Shown: piece by piece, positions 3,384 through 63,421 of the stretch
How the letters are laid out: every line of letters begins with the position of its first letter
Numbering within the stretch: the stretch's first letter is position 1
DNA from: an uncultured bacterium
Lineage (GTDB): Bacteria; Chlamydiota; Chlamydiia; Chlamydiales; JAJFMA01
Reading direction: 5' to 3'
NCBI GenBank assembly: GCA_964436955.1
Contig: CAYTFC010000007.1
Coordinates: forward strand, 1-63,472
DNA length: 63,472 nucleotides
The notes under the pieces: generated by a model
The model's input: only the letters and a program-made list of their open reading frames with translations
Told to the model about the DNA's origin: nothing
The model's database searches: none
Made by a program: the position numbers and the translations under genes

Positions 3384-4868
3384 TTAATGATAGACGCGGC
3401 GCTGCTGGGCGTTGCCAAGGCCTAGCTCGCCACGGTATTTGGCAATAGTGCGTCTCGCACATTGAATGCCTTGCTTCAACATCAGCTTAGAAATGGCTTC
3501 ATCTGAAAGTGGGCGATGTTTGTCCTCTACTTCCAAAAGTTTACGCAAAAGGTCTCTAGCTGTATTGGAGGATACCTCGTCTCCTTTTTCAGACACTAAC
3601 GCACTCGTAAAGAAAGAGCGCAAGGGGACTATACCTTTTGAACAATTCAAATATTTATTAGATACAGCACGTGCAATAGTGGATTCGTGCAGTTCTAGCT
3701 CATCTGCCAACACCTTCATTGTCAGTGGAACCATCTTGCCATCTGGCCTGAGAAAAAAATCTGCCTGCCTTACGGCTAGACTTTGTGCAATTCGTGTCAC
3801 TGTGTCATTCCGCTGATCAATGGTACGCATTAGCCACTTTGCAGATGCGATCTTCTCTTTAATGAATTCCGCAGTTTCAGAAGATACAGTTGGGTCGTCC
3901 AACATGCGTAGATAACGTCGGTTCAGCCTAAAACGCGGAATGGGTTCCTCGTTAGTTTCTACAATAAGCTTCTCGCCTTCTTTACGGATGGTGACGTCCG
4001 GTACAATATGCTGCACCGGACCGCGACCAAAGAGAGCTCCAGGGTGGAGGTCCAGCTTAAGAATATCCTTACTTATGGCTCGTGAGATATCGTCGCTCGT
4101 GCTGCCTAAACACTTCGCTATGTGTGGTATGCGATTATGCAGGAGATCATCATAACATTGTTCAATGATGGTGTAGGCTAGGGTCTTCTGCTTCCGTTGT
4201 GCTCGTAATTGGATTAAGAGAGAATCTTGCATGTTAAATGCACCGACGCCAGTTGGATCAAATGCTTGGATCTGCTTTAGAACTCTTTGTAGGTTCGTTT
4301 CGTTGTACCCGTACAAAGTTACAATCTCCTGCAATGGTGTGCCTAAATAGCCATTGGCATCCAAAAATCCGATCAAGGTCTCGGCCATTTCGAGATCAAT
4401 TCCCACCCCAAAGCTCTCGCGTGCTTGTGACATAAGGTGCTCAAAAAGTGACTCTTCCTCACAAATCGCGCTTTCTAAAAAGGACCGTCTCTTCTCATCT
4501 TCTGCCGTACGTGTGATGGAATAGTTCTCGCTTTCGGCAAAGTGGTCACGAAAATCATCGTCCAGTTGCCGGAGTACTTCAAAATTTTGATCTTCAAAAC
4601 GCATCTCTTCCATTTCTGATGTGGGCGCTTCATAGTCATCATCGAATTCATTATTGGCAAGGCTTTGCGCGTCATCAACATCATCTTGAGCGTATTCCAG
4701 AATAGGATTCAGCTCCATTTCAGCTTCGACAATCGTCGAAAGCTCCATTACAGAAACCTGCAATAATTGTATGGCTTGCTGCATCTGTGGCAACATGATT
4801 AGGCGTTGTGTTTGCTTTTGACTCTGTGCGTCTTTGGGATCTATTCTCATCGAGACTTGGTGTGCCAT
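3384..4868 (-). CDS. rpoN: RNA polymerase sigma-54 factor
   Basis: 494 aa with a Q-rich N-terminus (LIMLPQMQQAIQLLQ), a C-terminal HTH and an RpoN box (ARRTIAKYR). GGGAGG SD upstream. Confidence 0.9.
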   Translation of the reverse strand: MAHQVSMRIDPKDAQSQKQTQRLIMLPQMQQAIQLLQVSVMELSTIVEAEMELNPILEYAQDDVDDAQSLANNEFDDDYEAPTSEMEEMRFEDQNFEVLRQLDDDFRDHFAESENYSITRTAEDEKRRSFLESAICEEESLFEHLMSQARESFGVGIDLEMAETLIGFLDANGYLGTPLQEIVTLYGYNETNLQRVLKQIQAFDPTGVGAFNMQDSLLIQLRAQRKQKTLAYTIIEQCYDDLLHNRIPHIAKCLGSTSDDISRAISKDILKLDLHPGALFGRGPVQHIVPDVTIRKEGEKLIVETNEEPIPRFRLNRRYLRMLDDPTVSSETAEFIKEKIASAKWLMRTIDQRNDTVTRIAQSLAVRQADFFLRPDGKMVPLTMKVLADELELHESTIARAVSNKYLNCSKGIVPLRSFFTSALVSEKGDEVSSNTARDLLRKLLEVEDKHRPLSDEAISKLMLKQGIQCARRTIAKYRGELGLGNAQQRRVYH

Positions 4869-4980: not shown

Positions 4981-7062
4981 ATGTCTATCACCACAGCTAG
5001 CCCCGAAACCAAGGCTAAAGCGGCTTTAACCGGCAGCAAATCAAAGCCCGCAATTTTGCTGGTGGACGATGATCTGCTAACACTTAAGGCGTTAGAAAAA
5101 ACGCTGCACGATGTACGTTTTGATGTCATGGTAGCCCCTAACGGAATGGAGGCATTAAAGCTGATGAGACAGCAGTCATTTGCTGTCATTATTTGCGATC
5201 AACGCATGCCGGGCATTACCGGCGCGGAAGTTTTGCGCGAAGCCATTAATCTTCAAAGTCATGCTATTCGCATTCTACTTACAGGCAGCGGCGACCTTAA
5301 TACTGTGGTCGAGGCCATTAACGTAGGTCAAGCCTCACAGTTTATCCTTAAACCGTGGGATAATGCGGCTCTGCGCCAAACAGTCACAAGTTGCGTAGAA
5401 AAGCATCTCCTTATCAAGGAAAACGATAGCCTTCACCAGCTTACTGCTTCTCAGCATGAGCAGCTTGCGGCAACCCATGACACACTTAAACGAGAGCTAC
5501 AACTTGGTGCGCGTATTCATCAAGTAATGCTCCTTGGTAAGGTGCCTAACGATGTGCCGGGTCTATCCATAGCAGCCACCACGATTCCCTCAAGGGATAT
5601 CGATGGCGATTTTATTGACTTCTTCCGTCCGCTACCACAACTCTTTGATATTGTTATTGGCGATGTCATGGGCAAAGGCCTTCCAGCTGCATTGGTTGGC
5701 ACGGCTGTAAAAACGCAGCTCACACGTTTTGCTGTCCCCTTCAATCGATTACAAGTGTTTGATAAACACGGCATTTGGCGCGATGACATTTTTTCTCCGC
5801 AGGAAATCATGACGCGCGTGCAAAAAGAGGTGGCTATACCGCTCATTGATTTAGAATACTTTGCGAGTCTGTTTTATGGTAGATTCGATCTCAAGCAAAC
5901 AACGCTCACCTATATCGACTGCGGATCCTCCAAACCCTTGCACTATCACGCCTCACAAAAGCGGGTGACAGAACTTCGCGGTGACAATTTCCCCCTTGGC
6001 GTTCTTCCTAGTGAAACCCTGACTTCGCAAACAACGCGCTTTGAGAAAGAGGACATTTTCGTATTCTATTCAGATGGGGTCACCGAGGCACGCTCTCCAA
6101 GCAACGAATTGTTCGGAACAAATAGACTAAAGGCTTTGGTTGAACACAATCATCACCTCTCAGCCCAAGATCTTCTAGATACCATCAAGCGCGCGGTAGT
6201 TGTCTTCGCCGAAAAGGAACATTTCGACGATGATGTGACAATTATCGTTGTGCGAATTGACCAAACGCTTATTCCCGAGTTCGCTAAGCAGGCAACCGCC
6301 AAATTTAGCAGTGAGCTTTCACAAGTGCGGACTGTCCGAGAATTTGTACGCAAAATGTGCCTGCAAGCGCCTGGAGACGCCGACAGATTGTTTGAGGAGC
6401 TCCAGCTTGCAATCAACGAGGCATTTTGCAATATTGTGGTTCATGGCTACAAGCGTACTCGGGGTGAAATTCGCCTCAGCGGCGAGCTAGTAGACGATGG
6501 AATCATCTTTGAACTGAGCGACCAAGGCGCCATCTTCGATCCTTCTGCAGTAGCAGATCCTAGTTTTTTGGGCGATCGCGATAATGGCTTTGGCTGGTTC
6601 ATTGTAAAGGAAATTGCCGACCGGGTCATCTACGCCCACAAAGAGTCGGAAAAGGGGTGGAACCATCTAAAGATCTTTAAGAAATATCATTTGGAAGGGG
6701 CAAAGATGGATATATCTCACGACAGCAAAGAAGGGATTTTGGTAGTTACCTTGGAAGGAGAGCATCTCGATGCACGAGAGACGCCCCTCTTCAAACAAAA
6801 GGTAAATGATCTGCTAGAAACCGAAAGTTGCAGCCGTGCTGTGTTTGATCTGCACCGTTTGCAGTTCATCGACAGCTCTGGCTTGGGAGCATTCCTCTCT
6901 ATCCTAAAGACCTTGCACAGCAAGGGAGGCGACCTCAAGCTTGCAGGCATGAACCGTACCATTCGTACCATGTTCGAACTGGTGTGTATGCATAAGATCT
7001 TTGAGATCTTTAACTCTCCAGACGAAGCCTTACGTTCATTCGAGATCTCCAGACCGCATTGA
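4981..7062 (+). CDS. Four-domain fusion protein: receiver (REC), PP2C/SpoIIE phosphatase, RsbW-like HATPase kinase and STAS anti-sigma antagonist
   Basis: REC: ILLVDDD ... IICDQRMPG ... ILKPW. PP2C: DGDFIDF, GDVMGKGLPAAL, YSDGVTEA, DDVTIIVV. HATPase: AINEAFCNIVVHGY, DQGAIFDP, GFGWFIVKEIAD. STAS: FIDSSGLGAFLSILK. Confidence 0.8.
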   Translation: MSITTASPETKAKAALTGSKSKPAILLVDDDLLTLKALEKTLHDVRFDVMVAPNGMEALKLMRQQSFAVIICDQRMPGITGAEVLREAINLQSHAIRILLTGSGDLNTVVEAINVGQASQFILKPWDNAALRQTVTSCVEKHLLIKENDSLHQLTASQHEQLAATHDTLKRELQLGARIHQVMLLGKVPNDVPGLSIAATTIPSRDIDGDFIDFFRPLPQLFDIVIGDVMGKGLPAALVGTAVKTQLTRFAVPFNRLQVFDKHGIWRDDIFSPQEIMTRVQKEVAIPLIDLEYFASLFYGRFDLKQTTLTYIDCGSSKPLHYHASQKRVTELRGDNFPLGVLPSETLTSQTTRFEKEDIFVFYSDGVTEARSPSNELFGTNRLKALVEHNHHLSAQDLLDTIKRAVVVFAEKEHFDDDVTIIVVRIDQTLIPEFAKQATAKFSSELSQVRTVREFVRKMCLQAPGDADRLFEELQLAINEAFCNIVVHGYKRTRGEIRLSGELVDDGIIFELSDQGAIFDPSAVADPSFLGDRDNGFGWFIVKEIADRVIYAHKESEKGWNHLKIFKKYHLEGAKMDISHDSKEGILVVTLEGEHLDARETPLFKQKVNDLLETESCSRAVFDLHRLQFIDSSGLGAFLSILKTLHSKGGDLKLAGMNRTIRTMFELVCMHKIFEIFNSPDEALRSFEISRPH

Positions 7063-7093: not shown

Positions 7094-7837
7094 ATGAAAA
7101 TGCGTACACCACTCACCGGTAATGCCCGACAACAACTCATTGCAGAGCTGCATCGCCGCTATGCTCACGCACCCACCAAAGGCCTACGTTGGAAATATCT
7201 TCGCAAATACTACGGCTGGATTGCCGTTGTCACTGGGGCTAAAGTACTCAAGCGCGTGGTTGATGTCATAGGATCTATCATGCTCCTTATTGGCTTAAGT
7301 CCCCTGCTACTATTCATCGCCGGACTTATAAAGCTAACAGATAATGGCCCAGTATTCTATGTCTCCACCCGAGTAGGACGCTGGGGACGCGAATTTGCCT
7401 GTCCCAAATTTCGTTCTATGTACGTGGGTGCAGATAAGGCTAAGGCTAAGCTAGAAGCAAATCAGGACCATAAGAATAGCGTGACATTCAAAATGAAGAA
7501 CGACCCTCGCATTACTTGGATAGGGGCCATTCTGCGCAAAACAAGCATGGATGAGCTGCCCCAGCTATGGTCTGTCTTAAAGGGCGAAATGTCGTTGGTG
7601 GGACCACGGCCTCCGCTCCCCAGCGAGGTAGAAAAATACACGCTCGATGAGCGTCGACGACTTGACATAGTCCCTGGCCTCACGTGCATATGGCAAGTCA
7701 GCGGACGCTCAGATATACCGTTTGATCAACAGGTGAAATTGGACCTTCAGTACATTCAGAGTCAAAGTTTTTGGGTAGATTTTAAGATACTTGTGCGAAC
7801 TATTCCCGCTGTATTTCTTGGTAGAGGGGCTTATTGA
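7094..7837 (+). CDS. Bacterial sugar transferase (undecaprenyl-phosphate sugar phosphotransferase, small WbaP/EpsL type)
   Basis: 247 aa with one TM, then CPKFRSMY and [38 protein letters not shown] signatures. Confidence 0.85.
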
Positions 7838-7838
7838 A

Positions 7839-9293
7839 GTGAAAGTTGTCCTAAACGCAACAGGATATAGCTCTTCATTGATTCCATTGGTCCATCGAAG
7901 GCCGACGCCACTCTTTCGCGTGGTTGACAAGCCGATTATTATTCACGTGATCGAATTTCTCGTTCAAAACGGTTTCACCAAGATTGAGCTGGTATTAAGC
8001 CACCTTCCAGAGATGATAGAAGGAATCTTGGAAGATGGGACGCGTTGGGGCGCAAAAATCACCTACCACCTCAGCCGTGATCCTAATAAGCCCTTTAACG
8101 TCTTGGGACCAGTAGCAAAAGGGTGGAAAGACCATTATATCCTGATTGGGCGCGCGGATGTTCTTCCTAACTTCGACCCACAAAAGCTTAAGACCCCTGG
8201 ACAAGGCAAACCAACCATGCTTTATGGGCCAGATGGCAATTGGACTGGATGGGGAATTGTCTCAACCGAGGGCTTGGCAGCCATGCCCTTTGATGCACCA
8301 TACGAAGCGCTGCCAGAGCATTTAGGAGAGCATAATCATCAATCCACCAAAGAGCCAATCCTTGCCGTTCAGAACTTCGGAGGATGGCAGCGCTCCAATA
8401 ACGAACTCCTGCGGCGGAAGATGTCTAGTGCCTCCTTTCCCTCCAGCGCACGAATGGTAGAGCCAGGAATATGGCTATCGCGAGCGACCACAATCCATCC
8501 TAGATCAGTGATTATTCCCCCTGTATTTATTGGAGATAACTGTCAGGTACTTGAAGGTGCAAGTATTGGACCAAACGCCATTGTGGAAAATCACTGCATC
8601 ATCGATAGGCTTTCGCTGGTAGAAAACTCTATTGTCTGCCAAGAAAGCTATGTTGGCCGCAGCTTAGAGATTCGAGATAGCATCGTTGATAGGAATACAT
8701 TGGTAAATCTATCGCTTGAAACATCGGTGTTGATTCGAGATGATTTCATCTTAGCACACTTACGCCCTCCGCCATTTAGTCAGCAACTCTTCAATGTAAC
8801 GGAACGTATTTTAGCCGGACTGTTATTGCTAGTATTAGCACCTCTACTGCTGCCATTAAGTGTGATATGGGGAATTCATTACTCTCAAGTCTTAAAGCTG
8901 CCTATTGAGCGAGAAAACGAGATTTGGCCCACATTTTTGCTGTATACGTTTACTAGGCCAAAGGGATGGCTTTCATCACGTTTATGGAAGCGCCTTCAGA
9001 ACTTACCAGCGTTGGTGAATATCGTGAAAGGAGAGCTTCATTTTGTGGGAGTTCCTCCTATGACCTCTGCCCAGCTAGAGCGTCAGCTCCCGGACTGGCA
9101 AAGCTTATACCGTAAAACCAAAGTAGGTTTGGTAACTTTGGCAGACGTCGATTATGCCGAATATCCCTCAGATTCTGAACGTTTTGCATCAGAAACATAC
9201 TATGCAGCGCATCAACGCGTCCGCTTTGATTTGCATGTTCTTGCCCGCTGGATCCTTCGAAAGGTCTTCGGTCGCGGCAAGGCAGAAGGGTGA
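7839..9293 (+). CDS. Fusion of a nucleotidyltransferase-like domain, a left-handed beta-helix and a degenerate sugar-transferase-like domain
   Basis: The preferred start is the in-frame GTG at 7839, just after the upstream stop at 7835..7837. The N-terminus resembles an NTP-transferase fold but has LNATGYSSSL instead of a G-rich loop. Hexapeptide-like repeats lie around residues 240-300. A TM segment (ILAGLLLLVLAPLLLPL) is followed by LPALVNIVKGELHFVGVPP. Confidence 0.55.
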   Translation: MKVVLNATGYSSSLIPLVHRRPTPLFRVVDKPIIIHVIEFLVQNGFTKIELVLSHLPEMIEGILEDGTRWGAKITYHLSRDPNKPFNVLGPVAKGWKDHYILIGRADVLPNFDPQKLKTPGQGKPTMLYGPDGNWTGWGIVSTEGLAAMPFDAPYEALPEHLGEHNHQSTKEPILAVQNFGGWQRSNNELLRRKMSSASFPSSARMVEPGIWLSRATTIHPRSVIIPPVFIGDNCQVLEGASIGPNAIVENHCIIDRLSLVENSIVCQESYVGRSLEIRDSIVDRNTLVNLSLETSVLIRDDFILAHLRPPPFSQQLFNVTERILAGLLLLVLAPLLLPLSVIWGIHYSQVLKLPIERENEIWPTFLLYTFTRPKGWLSSRLWKRLQNLPALVNIVKGELHFVGVPPMTSAQLERQLPDWQSLYRKTKVGLVTLADVDYAEYPSDSERFASETYYAAHQRVRFDLHVLARWILRKVFGRGKAEG

Positions 9294-20108: not shown

Positions 20109-20130
20109 GGCAAGGGGTTAAACCCTTGCC
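20109..20130 (+). terminator. Stem-loop after the small secreted gene (possible terminator, no T-tract)
   Basis: GGCAAGGG gttaaa CCCTTGCC forms an 8-bp perfect stem 15 nt after the stop. Confidence 0.3.
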
Positions 20131-20269: not shown

Positions 20270-22426
20270 ATGCGTAAGCTAATGATTATCCTACTTCTGG
20301 CCATCTTAGCCCTTGGCGGTTTCGGCCTCTATTACAGGGCTAAGATCTGGAATTACATTTCCCGTGAGCACTACTCACCAGAAAAGGAAAAGGTAGACAT
20401 AGAGAAGGCTGAAGGGTTGCTGAAAGATGGCCAACCCAAAGACGCCCTTGATGTGATTCAAGTCTATCAAGAACGTTTCGCGCAAAAAGATGATGTGGCC
20501 AAGAAGTGGGTGGACCTCTTTATGAAGGCATCCTTAGGTGCCCAAGAACCAGAAAACATCTACTTTCTTTATCAGCAGTTTCCCCATTCAATCGATGGCA
20601 ATGAAGAGGGCGCTCTTATTGTGAGCGACTTACTCGTGAAAACGGGTAAAATCAATGACTACACGCATTTAAGGGATTCCTGGAAGGGCAAGGAAACGCG
20701 TCCAGCGGCTTGGTTCGTTCTGGATGCTGATAAGATCCTGGTTGATGGTGACCGTCAAGCGGCTATTAAGCTATTAAATTCTCAGTCTTTTGAGGGTTCA
20801 GATGATGTGCCTCGTTTGGTACGTCTCGCATTTTTGAATGTGGAAGAAAATCCTCGTATGTCCTGGGAATACCTTACAGAGGCTTATCAGAAGGATCCCA
20901 AAAACGTAATTGTGCGTTCCTACCGAGCACGTCTTTTGGAAGCTGTTAACAAGAGTGCTCTAGCCCTCTCAGAATACGTGGCGGCTGCGAGCATCGAACC
21001 AAAAAATGCGGCGTTACGTGACCAATTGGCCGAGTTCTACCGTCGGCATGGTCGCTATAAGCTTGCGCTTAAGGTGTGGGAGGATGCGCTAACATTCCAA
21101 AATTCAGACAGCCTTTGGGTTAAGGAATGGTTTTGGGGACGTATGGCAACGCCGGTAGATTTTAAATGGGACGAGAAAAAGGTTCCCGCAGGTGAGCTAC
21201 AGCCATTTGTGGATTACCTTCTTAGTCTTACGGCCGAACAATATTGGGATAGTTCCAAGTTTGAAGCGTTAAGCAATGCCAACCAGTATCTTCAAACGCA
21301 GCAATCCAGCTTCTGGCTACGTCTTGTGCAAAATCTAAAGGACAGCCAGGATGATAAGGCTTGGGAACTGATTCAATACAACAGCTTCAATCCTGTGAGC
21401 TGGAGTCCAGAACTGGAAACGATGATTAAACGTATCCTTGCTTATCGTAAGACAGGGTCTTTGATTCTGGCAGAAGAGGCTAAAAAACCGCATGGTTTGG
21501 ATGAAGAGGATACTCCTAAGCAAACTCTTACTCCCGCAGCAACAACTCCTATTGCCACACAAACGCCGACCAAAGGTCCAGACGACCAAGAGGGTGCTGC
21601 TGCCACTCAAACCACATCACAGCATCCTTTCTACATTCAGCTTCAGAATTTAGCTAAGTCTGAGCAAAAAGGTGAAAAGGATGTTGTTCCTGAGTCACTT
21701 AAGAAGCTACTTACAGGAAAGGACGCCTTTACTGCTGCATTTCTAGCAGCAGGTTGGTTAGAGGCGGCTTTAGCACTCAATTCTGCTAAGGTTCTACCAG
21801 ATGATTCACCAGAGTGGTTCAGCTATGGCCTGACACAAGCCATTCGATTCAATCGCGGAACAATGCCAGCTCTCGAGTTCGCAACCAAACAAAAACCTAC
21901 TCCAGCGTTGAACATGCTAATTGGCGAGTTGCTTATTTCAAGTGGTAGCCCAGATGCTGGACTTGAAAAGCTACTTGCACTAGCTAATCAAAACGATGAC
22001 ATTGGCTTTCGTGCAGCTTGGTTAGTGACCTTGCTTTACATCGAGAGACAACAGTTTGATAAGGCAATTGAAATGATCCAATCACATCCGGCTTTAGCCC
22101 AAAATGTTATTGGGCGCGAAGCTCTAGCTAGGATTGCATTGCTGCAAGGGAAGATCGAAGAGGCCGACCAACAATATAGTGCGCTAGAAGCTGAATCCTG
22201 GGAAGCTAAGTCCTACCTCGCTCGCAAGGCCTATGAAGATAAAAACTTCAAGCGTGCCAAAGAGCTCACTGAGGCTCTCCTAATCGAATTCCCTAACAAC
22301 ATCCTCATTCAAAAGAACTATCAAAAGATCTTGGATGATGAAAAAGGTGGCAACACAGCAACTCCACAACAGATGCAACCAGTTACACCATCTACACCTG
22401 ATGTAAAGGGAACTCCAAAATTATGA
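20270..22426 (+). CDS. TPR-repeat protein with N-terminal TM anchor (paralog B); PrsT-like position upstream of the exosortase
   Basis: 718 aa and collinear with 9585..11579. Its stop overlaps the exosortase start (ATGA at 22423..22426). Confidence 0.7.
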   Translation: MRKLMIILLLAILALGGFGLYYRAKIWNYISREHYSPEKEKVDIEKAEGLLKDGQPKDALDVIQVYQERFAQKDDVAKKWVDLFMKASLGAQEPENIYFLYQQFPHSIDGNEEGALIVSDLLVKTGKINDYTHLRDSWKGKETRPAAWFVLDADKILVDGDRQAAIKLLNSQSFEGSDDVPRLVRLAFLNVEENPRMSWEYLTEAYQKDPKNVIVRSYRARLLEAVNKSALALSEYVAAASIEPKNAALRDQLAEFYRRHGRYKLALKVWEDALTFQNSDSLWVKEWFWGRMATPVDFKWDEKKVPAGELQPFVDYLLSLTAEQYWDSSKFEALSNANQYLQTQQSSFWLRLVQNLKDSQDDKAWELIQYNSFNPVSWSPELETMIKRILAYRKTGSLILAEEAKKPHGLDEEDTPKQTLTPAATTPIATQTPTKGPDDQEGAAATQTTSQHPFYIQLQNLAKSEQKGEKDVVPESLKKLLTGKDAFTAAFLAAGWLEAALALNSAKVLPDDSPEWFSYGLTQAIRFNRGTMPALEFATKQKPTPALNMLIGELLISSGSPDAGLEKLLALANQNDDIGFRAAWLVTLLYIERQQFDKAIEMIQSHPALAQNVIGREALARIALLQGKIEEADQQYSALEAESWEAKSYLARKAYEDKNFKRAKELTEALLIEFPNNILIQKNYQKILDDEKGGNTATPQQMQPVTPSTPDVKGTPKL

Positions 22427-23238
22427 ATAGAACAGACTGGGGCGTCTTACTAGGCTTAGTCCTATTGGCAACCTTCGTGTGGCTACGAGACACGACGTGG
22501 ATGTCTTCAGCCGAAGACACGCTGCCTATTCTAGTCGCGCTTCCAGTATTTTTCTATCTGGGACGCCCTTGGTATTTCGATAGCACGAAGCCATTACAAT
22601 TCCCCGTTGTACCAGCCCTTATTTTTATGGCACTCTTTCTAGTGGGAATTGCCGGAGATAGCACCTTACTGATGGCATTTGGATGGGTCTGGCTACTGTG
22701 GACATGGTTAAAACAGCGCACGCCTCTAGTCAATCACAGCTCAATAAAAAAACTATTAGTGCTGCCTTTAATGTCTTTTCCTTGGGTAACATTAGATCTG
22801 CAAACCCTAGGGTGGTATTTTAGGCTCTCAGGTGCCTTTGTCACTGCACACTTATACTCATTACTAGGTTATGAGGTGCAGTGGGAGGGAACGACAATCT
22901 TCATCGATAAACTGCCTATTTCAGTAGAAGCTGCTTGTGCGGGCTTAAACACACTGCAGTCGATGTTTATTGCAGGCACTGTTGTGGCATACGTTATTTT
23001 AGGTGAGACAAATCGCTACTGGCCAAACTTAGCTGTTATCTTCCTCATGGCGTGGGTAGCAAATACATCACGCATTGTTCTCATCAGTGCTGTTGCATTA
23101 GGTTTTGGACGCGAATTTGCTATGGGAGCTTTCCATACTTGGGGTGGCTGGTTTATATTAGTTCTGATGTTCGTCCTATGTTGGATGATTTTTGAATTAC
23201 AGGCACCCAAGGCACCTCCTGCGAAGTCTAAGACATGA
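22423..23238 (+). CDS. Exosortase-family transpeptidase (short form)
   Basis: 271 aa and polytopic. It carries exosortase-type motifs in the canonical order: SVEAACAGLNTLQS (Cys), WVANTSRIVLIS (Arg) and GAFHTWGGWF (His). Confidence 0.75.
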   Translation: MNRTDWGVLLGLVLLATFVWLRDTTWMSSAEDTLPILVALPVFFYLGRPWYFDSTKPLQFPVVPALIFMALFLVGIAGDSTLLMAFGWVWLLWTWLKQRTPLVNHSSIKKLLVLPLMSFPWVTLDLQTLGWYFRLSGAFVTAHLYSLLGYEVQWEGTTIFIDKLPISVEAACAGLNTLQSMFIAGTVVAYVILGETNRYWPNLAVIFLMAWVANTSRIVLISAVALGFGREFAMGAFHTWGGWFILVLMFVLCWMIFELQAPKAPPAKSKT

Positions 23239-23705
23239 TAAAAAGAATTAGTCTCCCTTCAGTTTTGGAATTCGCTGTTCTTGGCTATTGTATCTTTCAA
23301 GCCTCGGATTTAGTCACATCATGGGTAACCACTCCAGCTGCACGATGGGCCTGGATAGCTTTTATTATCTGGTGCTTGCCTGCGGTGCTTTACGTCACAA
23401 CGACAATTCGGTATGGGCGCGTGAAGGAGTCATCGCCGATATTACTTGGCTTAGCGATCACAATCTCATTGATTAGCGGTCTAGGATCATTGAACATTCT
23501 GGGTCATATTGGCTTAGCGCTAGCCATAGCTGGTCTTATGCCGTTCCATCTCGCTATGATCCCTTGGCTTGCAACAGCATTATCCTGGCTCCCCAGCTTT
23601 GGATGGATGATAAAAAGTTTACCTTTTGCTGTAATGCCTGCCATTCAGATCACCTTGGCGACAGTTGGCACAGCCATTTTAATATTCAGCACAAGGAGAC
23701 CGTAG
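23235..23705 (+). CDS. Polytopic membrane protein translationally coupled between exosortase and EpsI
   Basis: 156 aa with 4-5 hydrophobic helices. It has an ATGA overlap with the exosortase gene and a 1-nt gap to the next gene. Confidence 0.6.
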   Translation: MIKRISLPSVLEFAVLGYCIFQASDLVTSWVTTPAARWAWIAFIIWCLPAVLYVTTTIRYGRVKESSPILLGLAITISLISGLGSLNILGHIGLALAIAGLMPFHLAMIPWLATALSWLPSFGWMIKSLPFAVMPAIQITLATVGTAILIFSTRRP

Positions 23706-23706
23706 C

Positions 23707-24300
23707 ATGCAATCACAACGTGGTACTACTTTGCTATGGACTGGTTTAGTAGTGGCTATTGTTTTGGGTCTGCTGTGGCAATTTTTTCCGCTTCCAGATG
23801 CCCAAAGCCGCATTAAAAGCCTACCGCTTGCCGGACCAAATTTCGTGGGTCAAGATGTCGCCCTGAGCGATTGGGAAAAGGGCTTTTTTAAAAACGTTAA
23901 CGTGCTAAAACGTCTATATCATGTGGATAACAAGGTTCTGTTTGTTACCGCTTTAGATGGAACCAAGAATCGTCACGCGGTCCACGATCCGTTGTATTGC
24001 TTCAGAGGTAGTGGATTTGAAGTGGTGAGTCAAAAGAGTGAAAAACTCGACAATGGTGGGACGGTAGCCTTTGTTAAACTTAAAAAAGACGGTAAAGAAC
24101 AGGACGCAATGTATTGGTTCACCAATGGCAAAGACACGTACGACAGTCCATTGAAGTTTTGGATTCAAGCTACAATCCGTCGTCTATCACTTGGAATGTC
24201 AGGCCAAGAACCTATCTTGATCGTCGTTCAGCCAGTGGACAATACTGCCTTGGATTGGAAAAAAATCGTCCACACCTTCCCACAGCTACTCACCCTTTAG
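23707..24300 (+). CDS. EpsI-family exosortase-associated protein
   Basis: 197 aa with an N-terminal TM anchor, then HDPLYCFRGSGFEV. This resembles the EpsI H-x-P-x-x-C-x-x-G-x-G-W/F signature. Confidence 0.65.
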   Translation: MQSQRGTTLLWTGLVVAIVLGLLWQFFPLPDAQSRIKSLPLAGPNFVGQDVALSDWEKGFFKNVNVLKRLYHVDNKVLFVTALDGTKNRHAVHDPLYCFRGSGFEVVSQKSEKLDNGGTVAFVKLKKDGKEQDAMYWFTNGKDTYDSPLKFWIQATIRRLSLGMSGQEPILIVVQPVDNTALDWKKIVHTFPQLLTL

Positions 24301-24327
24301 TTTTTGGAAGAAAACTGGGCCTCGTCC

Positions 24328-24541
24328 GTCCTTTTGGTCCTTTTTTCCTAGTCCTTTATGTCCTTTTCGTCGTTTTGGTCCTTTGTCCTTTAGGTCTTTT
24401 TTTTCACTTCTAATATGGCTTGGTCACGCATTAAACCACCCAAACTTGTTCCTCAGTTTAGGGAAGAGAAAGGACCCAAAGGACAAGGGACCAAAACGAC
24501 GAAAAGGACATAAAGGACTAGGAAAAAAGGACATAAAGGAC
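24328..24541. repeat. Long hairpin element of GGAC-ending units
   Basis: Arms at about 24328..24396 and 24469..24541 are reverse complements (about 70 nt, few mismatches) with an about 70-nt spacer. An example of the units is gaaaaggac ataaaggac taggaaaaaaggac ataaaggac. Confidence 0.9.
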
Positions 24542-24916: not shown

Positions 24917-26056
24917 CTAACCTTTCGGCATGAGATGAAAAATATGATGTATGGACTGAATAGAAGCGGGTATGTCCCTATTTGAAAGAAGGCCGGCATA
25001 TGAATCTTCATCCTTGGGATGATAACCATGCATCCCGGGAATACGTTTGTGACCCATGAAACTGGGCACGATCAACCATCCCGAGCGCATTAGAAATATT
25101 GTATCACCATAGCGGCCATCTTTGAAAAAAACCCCAAATTCCTGTAGCTCTTGGTCTGATACAATCTCTCCTACTTGGAGCCCCTTTAACAGATGGTGAA
25201 TTTTGACTTTGGCCTCTTCATTAAGAAACCAAAACCGCGCCATTGTGGAATCATACATCACTGCAAAATCAACTCCGTATGTTAGTCCCAGCTTACTAAC
25301 TTCCTTTTGAAGGTCAAACTCACCAACGACATCATGCATTCCATGATCCGCGAAGATATAGAGAGCGACCTCATCATAAGTGCGTTTGGCAACATCCATG
25401 ATACGCATGATCTGCTGTTCATACCACTGTAAGAGTTGCAAAACGCTGGGATGATGGGTTCCCACGCGATGCATCAGGGCATCTAATTGACCTAAGGTCA
25501 CATAGGCCATGTCAACATTGCTGTGGTTGAGCTCTTCTATGAGAGTATTGATCTTGGTGGCATCATCGACACCTGGAGCACACATGTGATAAGGAATTCC
25601 ACGCTGCACAAGAATATCGAATATGTTTTGGCTTCCCGGAAGCCCTCCAGGCGTATAAATGCGCTTTTTCTCGGCATAATCAAAGTAGGGAAGATACTCA
25701 AAGGGAACGTTGTAGAGCTGCACATAGCCGGTATAACCCAGACTCTTCGCAACCATTTGGCTAATGCGACTGCGTACACGATGGTTATCCATGACTATAC
25801 TGGGTAGCCATTTCATCCAACTGTAGTTTGCGAAGGGAGATGTTTCCGGTGAATAGTAAAAAGAGGACCATAATCCATGCTCATTAGGCAACTTTCCCGA
25901 TATAATCGAGGGGTCGCAGGCGCTAGAGTAGCCAAAGATTGTTTCCAGCCGTTTGCGATTGGGAGCTACCTGACTAAGCAATTCGGGATGGCGCTGAATG
26001 ACCTCCCAGCCCATTGCGTCCACAAAAAGAAATAGAGAAAGCTGTCGTGTTGTCAT
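24917..26056 (-). CDS. Alkaline-phosphatase-superfamily enzyme (nucleotide pyrophosphatase/phosphodiesterase type)
   Basis: 379 aa with LFLFVDAMGWE (metal Asp), FADHGMHDV and PGMHGYHP motifs typical of the type I phosphodiesterase/NPP fold. Confidence 0.65.
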   Translation of the reverse strand: MTTRQLSLFLFVDAMGWEVIQRHPELLSQVAPNRKRLETIFGYSSACDPSIISGKLPNEHGLWSSFYYSPETSPFANYSWMKWLPSIVMDNHRVRSRISQMVAKSLGYTGYVQLYNVPFEYLPYFDYAEKKRIYTPGGLPGSQNIFDILVQRGIPYHMCAPGVDDATKINTLIEELNHSNVDMAYVTLGQLDALMHRVGTHHPSVLQLLQWYEQQIMRIMDVAKRTYDEVALYIFADHGMHDVVGEFDLQKEVSKLGLTYGVDFAVMYDSTMARFWFLNEEAKVKIHHLLKGLQVGEIVSDQELQEFGVFFKDGRYGDTIFLMRSGWLIVPSFMGHKRIPGMHGYHPKDEDSYAGLLSNRDIPASIQSIHHIFHLMPKG

Positions 26057-27198
26057 GCAAGCCCCTCCCTCAGTTCGTAAAAGCGTTGCAGGAGTTTATT
26101 GTAATCTCTTCTACCATTTAAGAGATGCTGGACAAGGCTTAGGTCAAGAGCATTGCTGCTGTCAAAGCTTAAAAGTAACCAAAGAGCCGGATATAATCGA
26201 TTGCGAGGGTGAATGAGAGACCATCTCCAGCTAGGAGCGAACATGCCTGCACCCATGTCACGTACATTGAGTGCCCAGGCTCTAGCTTGTGCTTTGGGCG
26301 TACCAGGGTGTAGGGGTAGTTGATGACAATAGGTTTGAAGGCTGGGCAAATAGGTTCCTAAGCGCCGTCCTTCATACCAAAGCAAAAAGCCTAAATAATA
26401 ACGCAACGTATCACTAAAAGCCGAATAGAGGTCCTCTTCTTCAAGTATAGTTGAATCGCCTTTCAGCTTGAACTCAATAGCCTTCAAATACTTTTGCACC
26501 ATCCACTTTGGGTCTGGAATGTCCATATGGTTTAGATAGGCTTCGATCCTATTAGCCTTAACAACATAGCTAAGGTCATAGTCTCCGTGCGTTAGCAGTA
26601 CACAGTCACCAAAGGCCAAATGATTTTTCCAGAGAAACTTCTGAAATCTAAAGCGCAACTCTTCAGTCATGATGGCTTCGCCGCCCAAGCCCATTTTAAC
26701 ATCTAAAAGGAGCTTGCCACGGTTTAAAAGAAGACGCGTTCCTTCATCCAAAGACAGATTTAAAAGGATATAAGGGGGCATTAAGGAAAGAATGTCCTGC
26801 CTGCCATAGAGCACCTGATGTCCATAGCGGAGTTCATAGTTCATCAGAGAAAACTCTGCATTTTTGAGGCTATGCAAAGTGTGCAAATAGAGGTCTACAG
26901 GAATTCCTAGCTGGTCTGTAAGTTCCTTTTCCAACATTCTCAGGCGTTTTTGGAAGTGCTGACGTGTCTGGTACGACAAATTTCCGCAAATCACCATCAA
27001 ATCATAGTCATTGAAAGGCTGCTCAATACCATCTTTATGAAGTGGAGTCCCTTCGCCACGTCCATATCCGCCCATCAAGACAATAGCCTCGATAGGCGGC
27101 GCTTGGGGAAGATCGCGAACTGCTGTCACAATACGTTGCAGCTCATTACCTAGCCGCTGTTCAAATTGGGGGGATCCAGCAACTGTATATTTTCCCAT
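26053..27198 (-). CDS. Pol-beta-fold nucleotidyltransferase with a GlnD/GlnE-like GGYGRGE motif
   Basis: 381 aa. LMGGYGRGEGTP ... FNDYDLMV is a G-G-x-G-R-G-E ... D-x-D NTase signature, with a longer-than-usual insert. The stop overlaps the downstream phosphodiesterase start (ATGA at 26053..26056). Confidence 0.5.
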   Translation of the reverse strand: MGKYTVAGSPQFEQRLGNELQRIVTAVRDLPQAPPIEAIVLMGGYGRGEGTPLHKDGIEQPFNDYDLMVICGNLSYQTRQHFQKRLRMLEKELTDQLGIPVDLYLHTLHSLKNAEFSLMNYELRYGHQVLYGRQDILSLMPPYILLNLSLDEGTRLLLNRGKLLLDVKMGLGGEAIMTEELRFRFQKFLWKNHLAFGDCVLLTHGDYDLSYVVKANRIEAYLNHMDIPDPKWMVQKYLKAIEFKLKGDSTILEEEDLYSAFSDTLRYYLGFLLWYEGRRLGTYLPSLQTYCHQLPLHPGTPKAQARAWALNVRDMGAGMFAPSWRWSLIHPRNRLYPALWLLLSFDSSNALDLSLVQHLLNGRRDYNKLLQRFYELREGLA

Positions 27199-27204
27199 AC
27201 ACGA

Positions 27205-28080
27205 CTACTCTGACGCCCCTTTTTTGGTGTAGCGCTGCGTTCCCTCTTTATGTCCTTGGTGATAGGCAAGATGAATAACAGACCGGTACAACACATTATA
27301 GGGAATCGTTAAGGGTTGGCCACATTTGAGGGCGCTTAGCGTATCACGAGCAAGTTCCTTGCCAACTTGATACACACGCGCAAATCCATTAGGAGCCGAA
27401 CCATAAATATAGCCAAAGGCCACTCCCTGACGATACCGCTTACGATACAATCCTTGAATGGAGTAGTTATGGGAATGCTCGACCACAGACTCCTGAACAA
27501 TTTTAAAACGCGCTCCTTTGGCTTGGCACATACGACACCAAGCAAGGTCTTCAGCATAGCCGGTGGTATAAAATGGAGTCTCCTCCCACAGGCTACGCTT
27601 AAATGCGCAGGCAACAGCAGAAAAGAAGTCCGTCAGAAAGCCATCGGGAAATCTGCTAGGAGCATAAGCTCTTAAATAGTCCTGTTTTACGATAAAATAG
27701 GCATCCACACGAGCAATTTGACGACTCATCGTTCCATCAGCCTCATCATCAATAATTGGACGAATAAGGCGCTCCAACCAATAAGAGTCTTGCGGGATTG
27801 CATCGGCATTAAGAAATACGATGATGGATTCGGCAGTGCGTTCTATCATCATATTTAATACCTTTCCAGGTACATAATCCTCCGGGGGAATGCGCACGAC
27901 TTTGCTTGCATCGCGGTTGTTGGCTTCCACCACTTCCAACGTCCCGTCTGTGGAGCCTGAATCCACATTATACAGCACGAAATGGCGGTATGTCTGCGCT
28001 TCCAAAGCCTTAAAGACGTCGGTTGTATAGGGCATCTCGTTTTTAGAACGCATGATAATAGCCACAACGGGATCAGCCAT
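27205..28080 (-). CDS. Family 2 glycosyltransferase
   Basis: 291 aa with VAIIMRSKNE ... LYNVDSGSTDGT ... FLNADAIP (DxD-like), which fits a GT-A fold. Confidence 0.8.
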   Translation of the reverse strand: MADPVVAIIMRSKNEMPYTTDVFKALEAQTYRHFVLYNVDSGSTDGTLEVVEANNRDASKVVRIPPEDYVPGKVLNMMIERTAESIIVFLNADAIPQDSYWLERLIRPIIDDEADGTMSRQIARVDAYFIVKQDYLRAYAPSRFPDGFLTDFFSAVACAFKRSLWEETPFYTTGYAEDLAWCRMCQAKGARFKIVQESVVEHSHNYSIQGLYRKRYRQGVAFGYIYGSAPNGFARVYQVGKELARDTLSALKCGQPLTIPYNVLYRSVIHLAYHQGHKEGTQRYTKKGASE

Positions 28081-28101: not shown

Positions 28102-29235
28102 TCAAGTAACACACTGCTCGTACACTTTCAACACTTGCCGTGCTGCCGAGGTCCAATTAAACGTGGCAGCGTAAGCTATGCCCTTATTAATACGTACTTC
28201 ACGGTCAGTGTAACCTGCAGCTTTTACTAGAGTTTGCAAAATCTCTTCAGGTTGCGTCGGATCAAATGTATCCGCATAATCTTTAGCCAATTCACCTAAA
28301 GATGTTGTATTCGAGCATATGACTGGCGCCCCACAGGCCATCGCTTCTAATAGAGGAAACCCAAAGCCCTCAAATAGAGAGGGAAAGACCATAAAATCAC
28401 AGGTCGAATAGAGTCGTACAATATCATCCCGTGGAATAGATCCCAAAAAGTGAATGGACTCATGGCATGCACTATCACGCGCGTATTGTTTGACAACGTC
28501 TGCTCCCGGCCAATCGGGTCCCGCCAGTACAAGCTGATAGGAATTCCCTTCACGCTGCTTGAATAACTCAAAAGCCTTGATGAGATTCAGGTGGTTTTTT
28601 GCTGGATGTTCCACGCGGGACACATAAACGATAAACGGCGCTTGAATCGGGTAGCGTTGGCGCAGTTCCTCTAGGGCTTGCTCCTTAGCTAGTGGCCTAA
28701 AGACCGTTCTATCGATACCAGAATAGATAACGGTAATTTTATCTTCGGGATAGCCCGTAAAGCGAATGATATCCTCTTTGGTATAGTGACTTACGGTAAT
28801 AATGTGGTCGCAGCGATGGACAATCCGCGATTGAAATTGTTCGTGATAGAACGTTCGCGCCATGTCGTATTTCCCACGCATGGCAAGGGGTGCCATGTCA
28901 TGAATTGTCGCCACAATAGAACAGGTCTTAATAAGAGGAATCCGTCGCATACTCGGGATATGTAACAGATCAAAAGGTGTTGTGCTGGCTTTCCAGGCGA
29001 GAACACTATTGTGCCAGGCGATGTTAACCAGAGGCTTTCCCACAATGTAAGGCGAAGATGTAAAACGAAAATTGGGTGACAGGGGAGTAAATAGCTGTTC
29101 GTCTCCTTCTGGCAGAAGAACTTCGTAGGAATTATCCCGATCAACAACGGATAGGGCTTCCAACTGTTTTAGAATGTAAGTGCCTATGCCACTGCGACCT
29201 TGATCAAGAACAAAGGCTGTCCATGCTATTTTCAT
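28102..29235 (-). CDS. Family 4 (GT-B) glycosyltransferase
   Basis: The preferred start is the ATG at 29235 (MKIAWTAF), which has an AGGAGG SD. The C-terminal motif is FPSLFEGFGFPLLEAMACGAPVICSN. Confidence 0.85.
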   Translation of the reverse strand: MKIAWTAFVLDQGRSGIGTYILKQLEALSVVDRDNSYEVLLPEGDEQLFTPLSPNFRFTSSPYIVGKPLVNIAWHNSVLAWKASTTPFDLLHIPSMRRIPLIKTCSIVATIHDMAPLAMRGKYDMARTFYHEQFQSRIVHRCDHIITVSHYTKEDIIRFTGYPEDKITVIYSGIDRTVFRPLAKEQALEELRQRYPIQAPFIVYVSRVEHPAKNHLNLIKAFELFKQREGNSYQLVLAGPDWPGADVVKQYARDSACHESIHFLGSIPRDDIVRLYSTCDFMVFPSLFEGFGFPLLEAMACGAPVICSNTTSLGELAKDYADTFDPTQPEEILQTLVKAAGYTDREVRINKGIAYAATFNWTSAARQVLKVYEQCVT

Positions 29236-29333
29236 GTTGGCCCCTCCTAATGGAAGCATGCGCAATTCCAGGACAAATTTCAAAACAAGTTACGTGCAGA
29301 GGCAGGAAGACGGGGAGGCGCAGAGAAAAACAT

Positions 29334-55529: not shown

Positions 55530-56750
55530 TCAGATTTCTCGTTGATAGATTTGGAGTATTTGATCAGCAACCGACTCCCAGCTGTAACTACGAACGGCTT
55601 CTGCGCCACCTAGTACTAATTGATGAGATAGGAATGGATCCTGCGCAATGCGTTCCATGCAATCGACAAGCTGTTCTTGGTTGCCATTTTCATAGAGAAG
55701 TACATCTTTACCTTGGGTAGTGAAACCAGGAATTCCTCCGACATTGCTTGCAATGACGGGGATTCCAGCTGCCCAAGCCTCTAAGATGACAATCCCGAAT
55801 GGCTCCATACGTGACGGCAGTACAAACATGCTGGCTGCACGATATGCGCTTGGTAATAGCGGATCCTCTGGAGAGAATCCTGGCACGATTAAGAGATGAT
55901 CCTCGACACCGAGTTCCTTGGCTGTAGCAAGAATCTCCTTATGATAGTCCTCTACATTGATAGGACCAATCAATACGAGTTTATAGCTAGGATGTCGCTC
56001 CACAAAGCTGGCGAAGGCACGTACAAGCAGGACTTGATTTTTCTGAAAGTCGATCCGGGATACACACAGAATAATTTTTTCCGTTTCATCAATCCCAAAT
56101 TTATTTCGGAACAAGGAAGCATCTGCAGATTGAAAGATCTCTCGATTGACCCCATTGGGAACATAGAAAATCGGTTTATTCGGATATTTCTTTTGCATGG
56201 CCTCATACTCGTCCTTGCCCACACATACAATGGCATTGGCATCATCTAGCGTCTTTCGAGCGCCAAAGAACCATCCAAAGAGCTTTCCCCATTCCCACTT
56301 ATTCTTAAAGGGTTCTTGCATTTTAGCTGAATGGTCCTCTGGCATAGTGAGATAACCACCATGAATGCTGACCACATAAGGAATGCCTCTGAGACGAGCG
56401 ACTGTGCGTGCAATCCCTCCTAAACGGTGCTGAACGTGCGTATGGATGAGCGATAGGTTGGGTTCGCGCAGCAAGGCCCAGAACATGCAAAGTGAAAGTG
56501 GACTACCTCCTTTAAGCTCCATTTTATGCTTAGAATCCTGGCTCAGACCAAACCACGGGAAAACAAATCGGTGACGTCTCACAGTCACTCCATCGACAAC
56601 CTGTTCGCCACATTGACAGAACATATCTGTGCAAAAGATGATGCTTGGAATTTCGCGAGCATTCAATTGCTTAGATATGTTCCAAACGACAGATTCCGTG
56701 CCACCCCATCTATTCAAATTAAAGCGGCGCATTACGTGTGCAATTTTCAT
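55530..56750 (-). CDS. Family 4 glycosyltransferase
   Basis: 406 aa with LPSRMEPFGIVILEAWAAGIPVIASNVGGIP. The start overlaps the upstream flippase stop by 4 nt. Confidence 0.85.
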   Translation of the reverse strand: MKIAHVMRRFNLNRWGGTESVVWNISKQLNAREIPSIIFCTDMFCQCGEQVVDGVTVRRHRFVFPWFGLSQDSKHKMELKGGSPLSLCMFWALLREPNLSLIHTHVQHRLGGIARTVARLRGIPYVVSIHGGYLTMPEDHSAKMQEPFKNKWEWGKLFGWFFGARKTLDDANAIVCVGKDEYEAMQKKYPNKPIFYVPNGVNREIFQSADASLFRNKFGIDETEKIILCVSRIDFQKNQVLLVRAFASFVERHPSYKLVLIGPINVEDYHKEILATAKELGVEDHLLIVPGFSPEDPLLPSAYRAASMFVLPSRMEPFGIVILEAWAAGIPVIASNVGGIPGFTTQGKDVLLYENGNQEQLVDCMERIAQDPFLSHQLVLGGAEAVRSYSWESVADQILQIYQREI

Positions 56751-59679: not shown

Positions 59680-59727
59680 TCCCATCCCTCTTATCATTAC
59701 TTCGAGCATCGCGCCATGTCTCCGTTA

Positions 59728-60912: not shown

Positions 60913-60955
60913 TCCTTGTCTCCCCACCAGTTCATCGCTACGCGTGTGTACTGTC

Positions 60956-63082: not shown

Positions 63083-63421
63083 GCTTATTCTCCCCCTCAT
63101 AGGTACTCAAATATGTTACGCTCGTCGCTGTCTCAAGAGATCAAGCGCAAGACAATCCAGATCTCATTTTTCCAATTTGTGCGCAAACATTAAACTTCAA
63201 ATCGGTAAAAAATATCTTCTTAATTAGGTGATGAGACGTCTAAAGAGACGAGGCTCCGCACGATAACTAAGAAATTGTTTACATTCCTAATGGATTTTAG
63301 AACCCTTGTCAATGTGAAAAACACATCTACAGCATTTTTTGAGAAGAAAGAACAAAGAAGACCACAAAATAGATGTGCCATACATATTTTGGCTAGTTGG
63401 CCTCATTTGCATTGGGCACTA

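Follow-up and report, generated by a model that had tools for sequence, protein, structure and literature searches.

An uncultured member of the Chlamydiota (Chlamydiales, JAJFMA01; contig CAYTFC010000007.1 of GenBank assembly GCA_964436955.1) carries four adjacent genes at positions 20,270–24,300 of the 63,472-nucleotide stretch of DNA that was analysed as a whole, hereafter the window. These genes encode a TPR protein, an exosortase (Xrt), a small membrane protein with 4–5 transmembrane (TM) segments (the 4TM module), and an EpsI-like protein. In our opinion, they are best explained as an exosortase module of an unnamed subclass that resides in a chlamydial exopolysaccharide (EPS) locus, uses the classical PEP-CTERM sorting signal, and had a DUF4114 protein as its ancestral cargo; we put the probability of this reading at about 0.7. 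The reading is drawn from the protein families and motifs of the four products, from natural gene fusions and conserved gene order in relatives, from the cargo genes that adjoin related operons, and from the chlamydial context of the contig.

The exosortase and its three partners

The 271-aa product of the second gene exceeds the thresholds of both PF09721 (Exosortase_EpsH; 85.7 bits, gathering threshold 25.7) and the exosortase/archaeosortase signature TIGR04178 (44.9 bits, cutoff 23). The three motifs by which the exosortase family is defined, Cys-x-Gly, Asn-x-x-Arg, and His-x-x-x-Gly (PMC1569441), occur in this order as EAAC172AG (C172-A-G174), AN214TSR217IV (N214-T-S-R217), and FH238TWGG242W (H238-T-W-G-G242). 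In a set of 20 homologs (24–70% identity), no substitution occurs at C172 or R217, and conservation at N214 and H238 is 90% or more. Cys172, Arg217, and His238 make up a putative catalytic triad. The AlphaFold2 (AF2) model, which was built from 44 homologs (predicted local distance difference test, pLDDT, 92.4; predicted template modeling score 0.85), is polytopic and has the approximately eight-helix TM fold of an exosortase; helices are predicted at residues 3–21, 30–46, 62–77, 81–99, 102–117, 127–147, 175–193, 199–228, and 236–260, and a periplasmic three-stranded sheet (residues 152–167) leads into Cys172.

No cutoff of a named subclass is reached by this exosortase in NCBIfam release 20, in which the models of XrtA, B, C, D, N, O, Q, T, V, and W, of CrtA and CrtC, and of ArtC and ArtE were compared. 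The best-scoring class is XrtV, with 52.9 bits against a cutoff of 313, while XrtA yields 49.8 bits against 208. Because no named Xrt model is reached, we consider the enzyme a member of a distinct subclass outside the named ones. Out of 1.84 billion representatives searched, 435 relatives of the exosortase were found at E ≤ 1e-3 and 97 at E ≤ 1e-30. The homologs with at least 49% identity form at least 120 clusters, most of which are probably chlamydial. The subclass is common to Chlamydiota, at least one Verrucomicrobiota metagenome-assembled genome (MAG), and several unlabelled MAGs.

The four genes are arranged for translational coupling, as indicated by two ATGA overlaps (22423–22426 and 23235–23238) and by the TAG-C-ATG junction at 23703–23709, in which a single nucleotide, 23706, separates the genes of the 4TM module and of the EpsI-like protein. 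A GC-rich hairpin and a weak terminator-like site on either side (Table 1) suggest the bounds of a four-gene transcription unit. It should be noted that the matches obtained in sigma-70 and terminator scans of the window are not above those in shuffled sequence. We regard the region as a complete four-gene exosortase module that is probably functional.

The 156-aa product of the third gene matches no Pfam or NCBIfam family. It contains 4–5 hydrophobic segments, its residues W46, W118, and P120 are invariant across homologs, and a homolog lies between Xrt and EpsI wherever the locus extends far enough to tell. Natural fusions clarify its relationship to its neighbors. Xrt and the 4TM module form one polypeptide in the relatives P0132, P0141, and P0146 (407–513 aa), and also in locus L035, whereas Xrt, the 4TM module, and EpsI form one polypeptide in P0143, P0199, P0186, and P0138 (607–682 aa). 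The 156-aa protein aligns with residues 290–401 of P0143 (32% identity, E = 3e-17), an alignment that covers about 110 of the approximately 150 residues between the Xrt and EpsI domains of that protein; analogously, the EpsI-like protein aligns with residues 419–605 (39% identity, E = 2e-51). The fused Xrt relatives likewise score below every named Xrt model, and two of them are on contigs too short for gene context. Because these fused relatives exist, the 156-aa protein is a split-off module of the exosortase system, and it can be argued from the same fusions that Xrt, 4TM, and EpsI would form one complex. Split or fused, TPR, Xrt, 4TM, and EpsI follow one another in a fixed order in 30 or more loci. 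The C-terminal TM segment and Arg-Arg end of the 156-aa protein were also considered as a sorting signal and rejected: the protein is polytopic, this end is an ordinary positive-inside end, and in the fused relatives the tail runs straight into the TM segment of EpsI.

The fourth protein passes PF11984 (DUF3485; 34.9 bits, gathering threshold 26.1) and falls below the cutoff of TIGR02914 (26.9 bits against 42.8); it matches XrtO and XrtN best, in their C-terminal EpsI regions. EpsI proteins are encoded directly downstream of, or fused to, an exosortase (PMC1569441). Here, the gene is the last one of the operon, and in P0143, P0199, P0186, and P0138 its homolog is fused to Xrt. A single N-terminal TM segment (residues 9–27) is followed by the HDPLYCFRGSGF motif, in which R89-H90-x-x-H93-D94-P95-x-x-C98 is invariant among 21 split and fused homologs. 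The wider motif spans residues 84–104 (D84-G-x-x-x-R89-H90-x-x-H93-D94-P95-x-x-C98-x-x-G-x-G-W), and E57, D84, R158, R159, and E168 are further invariant residues in the same homologs. This invariant His/Asp/Cys motif suggests an active or metal-binding site, maybe a second catalytic site. The AF2 model of the EpsI-like protein alone was unusable (pLDDT 49).

The 718-aa TPR protein has one N-terminal TM segment or signal anchor (residues 4–22), the remainder being predicted to be periplasmic. In tblastn searches, a TPR homolog with 29–65% identity was found directly upstream of Xrt in all of the related loci L001–L011 and L014–L038 that have sequence there. The window also encodes a paralog (Table 1), and L002 and L005 each have a second copy of the gene as well. 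Against the PrsT model (TIGR02917), the protein reaches 61.7 bits and the paralog 53.6 bits, far below the cutoff of 312.2, so that it resembles PrsT weakly and is not PrsT. It would be a clade-specific periplasmic partner that perhaps serves as a scaffold to the EPS export apparatus.

The original prediction, made from the letters of the window, had described four translationally coupled genes, an exosortase with its catalytic motifs in canonical order, an EpsI-type signature behind a TM anchor, and a separate 156-aa protein indicative of a split system or a distinct subclass. All of this stands: the ORFs, overlaps, and 1-nt gap are where they had been placed, the PF09721, TIGR04178, and PF11984 thresholds are passed, and both a split and a distinct subclass are borne out by the fusions and by the named-class scores. 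Two of its details do not stand. The exosortase, said to be short, is of normal length, since the models of stand-alone XrtA, XrtB, and XrtV have 261, 268, and 270 positions. The assignment of the TPR protein to the place of PrsT fails on the score given above and because PrsK and PrsR are not present.

Cargo and sorting signal

Evidence on the cargo comes from the set of related loci, to which 24 metagenomic loci were added. In nine of nine outgroup loci with upstream sequence (L010, L014, L026, L027, L029, L033, L035, L037, and L039), one to three PEP-CTERM genes adjoin the TPR gene upstream. DUF4114 homologs are among the cargo in eight of the nine, and most of the PEP-CTERM genes encode DUF4114 proteins that are homologous to one another. 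In the GC-rich L010, a DUF4114 homolog lies directly upstream of the TPR gene and a fused Xrt-4TM-EpsI gene; in L014, a Verrucomicrobiota MAG, it lies directly upstream of split genes for TPR, Xrt, 4TM (159 aa), and EpsI (197 aa), and in L039 likewise of a split set. Two chlamydial MAGs retain such a gene. The Chlamydiales MAG L005 encodes, 5.7 kb upstream of Xrt, a DUF4114 protein with the tail VPVPEPSTYLILASLLVFVIFAKRRK; this protein is 32% identical to the DUF4114 protein of L010 (E = 4e-31). The Waddliaceae MAG L012 encodes the same DUF4114 protein within a cassette of rpoN, PP2C-STAS, Bac_transf, and NTP-transferase genes. One further DUF4114 homolog, P0288, is a Cerasicoccus protein. With moderate confidence, the ancestral dedicated cargo may be taken to be an approximately 270-aa DUF4114 protein with a classical PEP-CTERM signal.

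Several observations weigh against this account. Hydropathy, PEP-motif, tblastn, and motif-agnostic scans found no PEP/TM/basic tail among the ORFs of the window, in agreement with the original prediction. Of the approximately ten chlamydial-type loci whose upstream sequence extends over 5 kb or more, one keeps a PEP-CTERM gene, and none of the 120 DUF4114 homologs listed is on a contig that agrees in length with one of the three Mb-scale chlamydial contigs (3,904,876, 2,260,404, and 998,202 bp); the dedicated cargo may truly be absent from a large part of the chlamydial clade. The neighbor-joining (NJ) tree, in which the rpoN-cassette loci form one clade nested among the cargo-adjacent loci, is without support values, and most loci are without a taxonomic label. 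The PEP-CTERM model TIGR02595 (cutoff 16 bits) is passed by the candidates of L005 (23.1 bits), L027 (21.9), L014 (17.6), and L037 (17.6); those of L010, L029a, L033, and L035a stay below the cutoff at 14.4–14.9 bits, and those of L012 (Waddliaceae), L029b, and L035b yield no match, though the architecture is visible in them. As for the enzyme, phmmer against the PDB found no solved relative (best E = 0.78), and Foldseek with the AF2 model found nothing similar in the PDB (best E = 0.36, template modeling score at most 0.23).

The lack of cargo in the window says little, since PEP-CTERM genes are typically scattered single-gene operons (PMC1569441) and the 63-kb window is only a few percent of a genome. 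Given that the window and most chlamydial loci are without an adjacent cargo gene, the cargo is either elsewhere in the genome or lost.

Loss is the starting point of the most serious alternative, namely, that the sub-clade of the window has lost its PEP-CTERM cargo and that the conserved module now has another task, the target of which might be the EPS pathway itself or substrates without a PEP-CTERM anchor. We consider this unlikely, yet worth keeping in mind. It would account for the contrast between the nine of about ten chlamydial-type loci without a nearby PEP-CTERM gene and the nine of nine outgroup loci with one, and for the Mb-scale contigs mentioned above. It also agrees with the state of the module, which is not decaying, because catalytic motifs and translational coupling are retained. 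The obvious candidate substrates would be small secreted proteins whose genes occupy the very slot that PEP-CTERM cargo genes occupy in other loci (Table 1). Throughout one chlamydial sub-clade, which in the NJ tree comprises the window, L002, L001, L007/8, and L038, genes for such LY(D/E)RN-motif proteins always lie directly upstream of the TPR-Xrt operon. The proteins (73–218 aa) have signal peptides, and Tyr, Asn, Asp, Arg, and Gln together account for 40–67% of the mature sequence; the motif [LF][YF][DE]RN(R/Q)D is common to the family, and F(N/D)PYN(Y/F)P is often present. They look disordered, to judge from composition, and have neither a TM anchor nor a Pfam or NCBIfam match.

The link of these small proteins to the exosortase system is positional only. 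Lacking both a TM anchor and a PEP motif, they are at odds with the mechanism as it is known. Moreover, the two chlamydial MAGs named above retain cargo in the cassette, the word-indexed homolog search overlooks divergent proteins, and the usual scattering of PEP-CTERM genes bears on the apparent loss in other loci as it does on the window. The fuller version, in which the dedicated cargo was lost in the sub-clade of the window, its slot was taken by the LY(D/E)RN proteins, and the machine was left without a PEP-CTERM substrate, seems to us more doubtful still. If it were true, a host-dependent bacterium might be using the module to make an extracellular coat, with either a novel type of substrate or EPS itself as the target.

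The original prediction had further raised the possibility of a sorting signal of a new kind. It is true that no named Xrt class is matched, that other named classes are paired with variants (VPLPA-CTERM, VPDSG-CTERM, and PEPxxWA-CTERM, according to the model names), and that no cargo is visible in the window; a distinct subclass recognizing a non-PEP C-terminal signal is nevertheless improbable, because homologous systems, including those of two chlamydial MAGs and of all nine outgroup loci, carry classical PEP-CTERM tails in the locus. In this clade, the tail of each locus-linked candidate consists of a plain (A/V/T/M)PEP(S/A/E/G/K) motif, then a TM segment, and then basic residues, and four candidates pass the generic model. 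A motif-agnostic scan for signal peptides combined with C-terminal TM/basic tails, covering approximately 500 kb of related loci, returned PEP-type tails only and no other recurring tail. Since four candidates pass, four fall slightly short, and three are undetected, we take the signal to be classical PEP-CTERM with moderate confidence.

The exopolysaccharide locus and its chlamydial host

The operon lies within a Wzx/Wzy-type exopolysaccharide locus of an environmental chlamydia. Like other exosortase genes, it is set among genes of EPS biosynthesis and export, here Bac_transf, NTP-transferase, GT2, GT4, Wza-like, Wzc-like, and flippase-like genes (Table 1). The best matches in the second EPS block are XrtA-associated families, all below cutoff: TIGR03007 gives 97.6 bits against 278.9, and TIGR03027 gives 90–91 bits against 180. 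The Wzc-like protein of this block is of the chain-length determinant/tyrosine kinase type. The window also encodes a raffinose-synthase/Sip1-family protein (30791–32752, plus strand; PF05691, 114 bits), a glycoside-transferase family unusual for Chlamydiota.

Table 1. Coordinates of the operon, its flanking sites, and other features of the exopolysaccharide locus
Feature	Position	Strand	Basis or remark
TPR partner protein, 718 aa	20270..22426	+	ORF list, TPR_19/17/14 matches
Exosortase, 271 aa	22423..23238	+	PF09721, TIGR04178, three motifs
4-5-TM membrane module, 156 aa	23235..23705	+	Position in loci, fusions in relatives
EpsI-like protein, 197 aa	23707..24300	+	PF11984, last gene of operon
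GC-rich hairpin	20109..20130		Between small secreted-protein gene and TPR gene; consensus scan
Weak terminator-like site	24316..24328		3' of EpsI stop; consensus scan
Small secreted protein, 218 aa	19119..19775	+	Upstream of operon
Small secreted protein, 86 aa	19834..20094	+	Upstream of operon
Third small secreted protein	11581..11859		Tyr/Asn/Asp/Arg-rich
Counterparts of small secreted proteins	L002 5872-7218; L001 7454-7756; L007 7389-7903; L038 59-328
Paralogous TPR protein, 685 aa	9522..11579	+	40% identity to 718-aa TPR protein
rpoN	3384..4868	-	Divergent from response-regulator/PP2C/HATPase_c_2/STAS fusion
Response-regulator receiver/PP2C(SpoIIE)/RsbW-like HATPase_c_2/STAS fusion	4981..7062	+
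Bac_transf priming sugar transferase	7094..7837	+
NTP-transferase/hexapeptide/Bac_transf-like protein	7791..9293	+
Type I phosphodiesterase-family protein	24917..26056	-	Convergent with operon
Uncharacterised protein	26053..27198	-
GT2-like protein	27205..28080	-
GT4	28102..29283	-
Second EPS block: GT4, MOP-type flippase-like, two Wza/OPX-like, Wzc-like	55530..63100	-

The order of the upstream cassette is repeated in L001, L002, L004, L006, L007, L012, L016, L020, and L031. In relatives, the cassette often includes a WecG-STAS fusion, followed by one or two TPR genes, Xrt, 4TM, EpsI, and glycosyltransferases; fusions of a WecG glycosyltransferase with STAS were seen in L004, L005, L006, L014, and L039. 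The PP2C/kinase/STAS fusion of the window suggests partner-switching control of EPS synthesis. The same protein contains the sole nearby response regulator, which reaches 38 bits with the PEP_resp_reg model (cutoff 502.6) and whose output is of the PP2C/kinase/STAS type rather than AAA+. A scan of the window for sigma-54 promoters (TGGCAC-N5-TTGC, at most two mismatches) found none upstream of the operon, and its total of 70 matches compares with 60±8 expected. With no such promoter upstream and the matches near expectation, no PrsR-type regulation can be claimed, and, as far as these genes and sites tell, regulation is not of the PrsK/PrsR type. The sole perfect match to the sigma-54 -24/-12 consensus in the window (TGGCACGGCGGTTGC, 3044–3058, minus strand) is located inside an ORF (2438–3328, minus strand), just downstream of rpoN and upstream of a ThyX-like gene (727–2361). 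The latter, on the minus strand, encodes a double-length ThyX of 544 aa with two Thy1 stretches and has a counterpart by the rpoN region of the Waddliaceae locus L012 (1–268).

Relative to the closest relative, L002, the block 12052–18784 is inserted in the cassette. It consists of the gene for a 1672-aa RHS-repeat protein (12052–17070) and genes for two immunity-like paralogs (17058–17882 and 18185–18784) that are 53% identical, and the block fits slightly less well by k-mers (r = 0.72). In the Waddliaceae locus L012, an RHS gene directly follows the DUF4114/PEP-CTERM gene. The RHS protein of the window was considered as cargo and rejected: it has no C-terminal anchor, immunity-like paralogs follow it, and it is absent from L002.

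Three chlamydial markers named in the original prediction are indeed present on the contig. These are an NTP/NDP translocase (NTT; TIGR00769, 611 bits), a 1529-aa fused SecDF for which the chlamydial-type PRK12911 is the best-scoring model, and a fusion of an ABC-3 permease with Fe_dep_repr_C, a DtxR-type repressor domain, in what we take to be the YtgC-YtgR architecture of Chlamydia. The EUO candidate, likewise named there, has no match among the available models. The composition check that it had proposed gives no sign of chimerism: the operon correlates with the NTT/SecDF/YtgCR region in tetranucleotide usage at r = 0.82, other window segments at 0.72–0.85, and the comparison loci at 0.44 (verrucomicrobial) and -0.20 (GC-rich), while GC content is even across the window (0.41–0.48). 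The cassette recurs in assemblies independent of one another, among them contigs of 3.9, 2.26, and 1.0 Mb, the last two being ERZ25067825 ctg182834 and ERZ25039558 contig_46148. By their labels, L001 belongs to the Parachlamydiales, L005 to the Chlamydiales, and L012 to the Waddliaceae. An assembly or binning artefact, in which an operon from a free-living contaminant was joined to chlamydial sequence, is very improbable, for although the labelling of P0007 (68% identity to the exosortase) as a Nitrosomonas sp. MAG indicates that binning is not always clean, the uniform composition, the identical cassette in independent assemblies and chlamydia-labelled MAGs, and the ThyX-rpoN synteny common to the window and the Waddliaceae contig all speak against it. 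The Nitrosomonas label is probably that of a mis-binned chlamydial contig (5.1 kb).

Two of the related contigs have further features of note. The 3.9-Mb contig that holds the closest relative (L002; ERZ25039454 contig_1137) would be very large for a chlamydia, and a type I-C CRISPR-Cas locus with a repeat array (12200–20810 of L002; Cas3, Cas5d, Csd1, Cas7, Cas4, Cas1, and Cas2) lies immediately downstream of its exosortase operon. On the 2.26-Mb contig of L004 (35% GC, chlamydial-type clade), a methyl-accepting chemotaxis protein (NIT-HAMP-MCPsignal; 17014–19008) is encoded 5 kb from the exosortase operon.

Proposed mechanism and relation to known systems

In the preferred reading, that of an unnamed exosortase subclass with classical PEP-CTERM cargo, the module would work after the PEP-CTERM/EpsH model (PMC1569441). 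A cargo exported by Sec would remain anchored in the inner membrane through its C-terminal PEP-CTERM helix. On the outer side of that membrane, Cys172, helped by Arg217 and His238, would attack at or near the PEP motif, forming an acyl-enzyme and releasing the TM/basic anchor. The cargo would then be passed to an acceptor and displayed at the surface of, or within, the EPS layer that the neighboring Wzx/Wzy-type genes produce. The 156-aa protein and the TM-anchored EpsI-like protein would be obligate subunits of the same machine, and the His/Asp/Cys motif of the latter may provide this machine with a site for binding or for a second catalytic step. The TPR protein, also TM-anchored, would be a fixed partner in the periplasm and might link the module, as a scaffold, to the EPS export apparatus. 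The genome of the window would encode its cargo elsewhere or would have lost it.

Exosortase/PEP-CTERM systems have been seen as a trait of free-living EPS producers of sediments, soils, and biofilms (PMC1569441). The literature searched contains no paper that ties exosortases, PEP-CTERM, or DUF4114 to chlamydiae and no description of a Wza/Wzc-type EPS locus or an EPS export locus for Chlamydiota; within this literature, the PVC-type exosortase variant has apparently not been described for Chlamydiota. Our results suggest that many environmental chlamydiae would build a surface layer of polysaccharide and protein. Such a layer would bear on survival outside the host, on attachment, or on life inside the inclusion. 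For the exosortase field, the module represents a curatable new subclass with the four-part architecture TPR, Xrt, 4TM, and EpsI, and it adds fusions that argue for a complex, a one-to-one pairing with DUF4114/PEP-CTERM cargo, and an EpsI motif that hints at a second active site. The more interesting question, in our opinion, is what role the module plays where a chlamydial genome has apparently lost the cargo gene next to it. These loci constitute a natural test of exosortase action minus the usual substrate.

The closest point of reference is XrtA, the PEP-CTERM/EpsH system (PMC1569441; TIGR03109, TIGR02602). Both systems have a polytopic exosortase with the CxG, NxxR, and HxxxG motifs, an EPS-locus setting, an EpsI-type protein next to the enzyme, and PEP-CTERM cargo, in the present case in related loci; in addition, the Wza-, Wzc-, and GT4-like genes of the window best match XrtA-associated families. 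The differences are nevertheless substantial. The exosortase of the window scores 49.8 bits against the XrtA cutoff of 208, PrsK and PrsR are missing from the window, and its TPR protein is not PrsT. An extra 4–5-TM subunit is encoded between Xrt and EpsI, and the regulator is a response regulator-PP2C-kinase-STAS fusion adjoining rpoN. Whereas XrtA has many scattered cargoes, the relatives of the window have one dedicated DUF4114 cargo gene by the operon.

The EpsI-fused exosortases (XrtD/VPLPA, XrtN, XrtO, XrtT, and XrtW) are alike in that relatives of the window also encode Xrt and EpsI as single chains of 607–682 aa. The best scores of split and fused members of the clade, however, are 41.9–61.5 bits against the cutoffs of these classes, which range from 200 to 425. 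XrtO has too little room for a 4TM module, because its EpsI match starts at position 287 of the 451 positions of the model. XrtV (NF035943) resembles the present system as the best-scoring named class, with 52.9 bits over model positions 5–259 of 270, and has a stand-alone EpsI partner as well; its cutoff of 313 is far off, and with the EpsI type V model the score is 18.6 bits, the cutoff being 228. Experimental work is represented by cyanoexosortase B of Nostoc punctiforme (PMC12188702) and by an exosortase of Flavobacterium johnsoniae that is implicated in surface colonization (PMC10936215). Both enzymes belong to the same superfamily and are reportedly associated with surface and biofilm phenotypes and PEP-CTERM-type cargo, but they represent other subclasses from free-living phyla; no similar study is known for PVC bacteria or chlamydiae. 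Thus, the system of the window differs from XrtA/EpsI and from the fused classes in its 4TM module, its dedicated TPR partner, its one-to-one DUF4114 cargo, and its host among the Chlamydiota.

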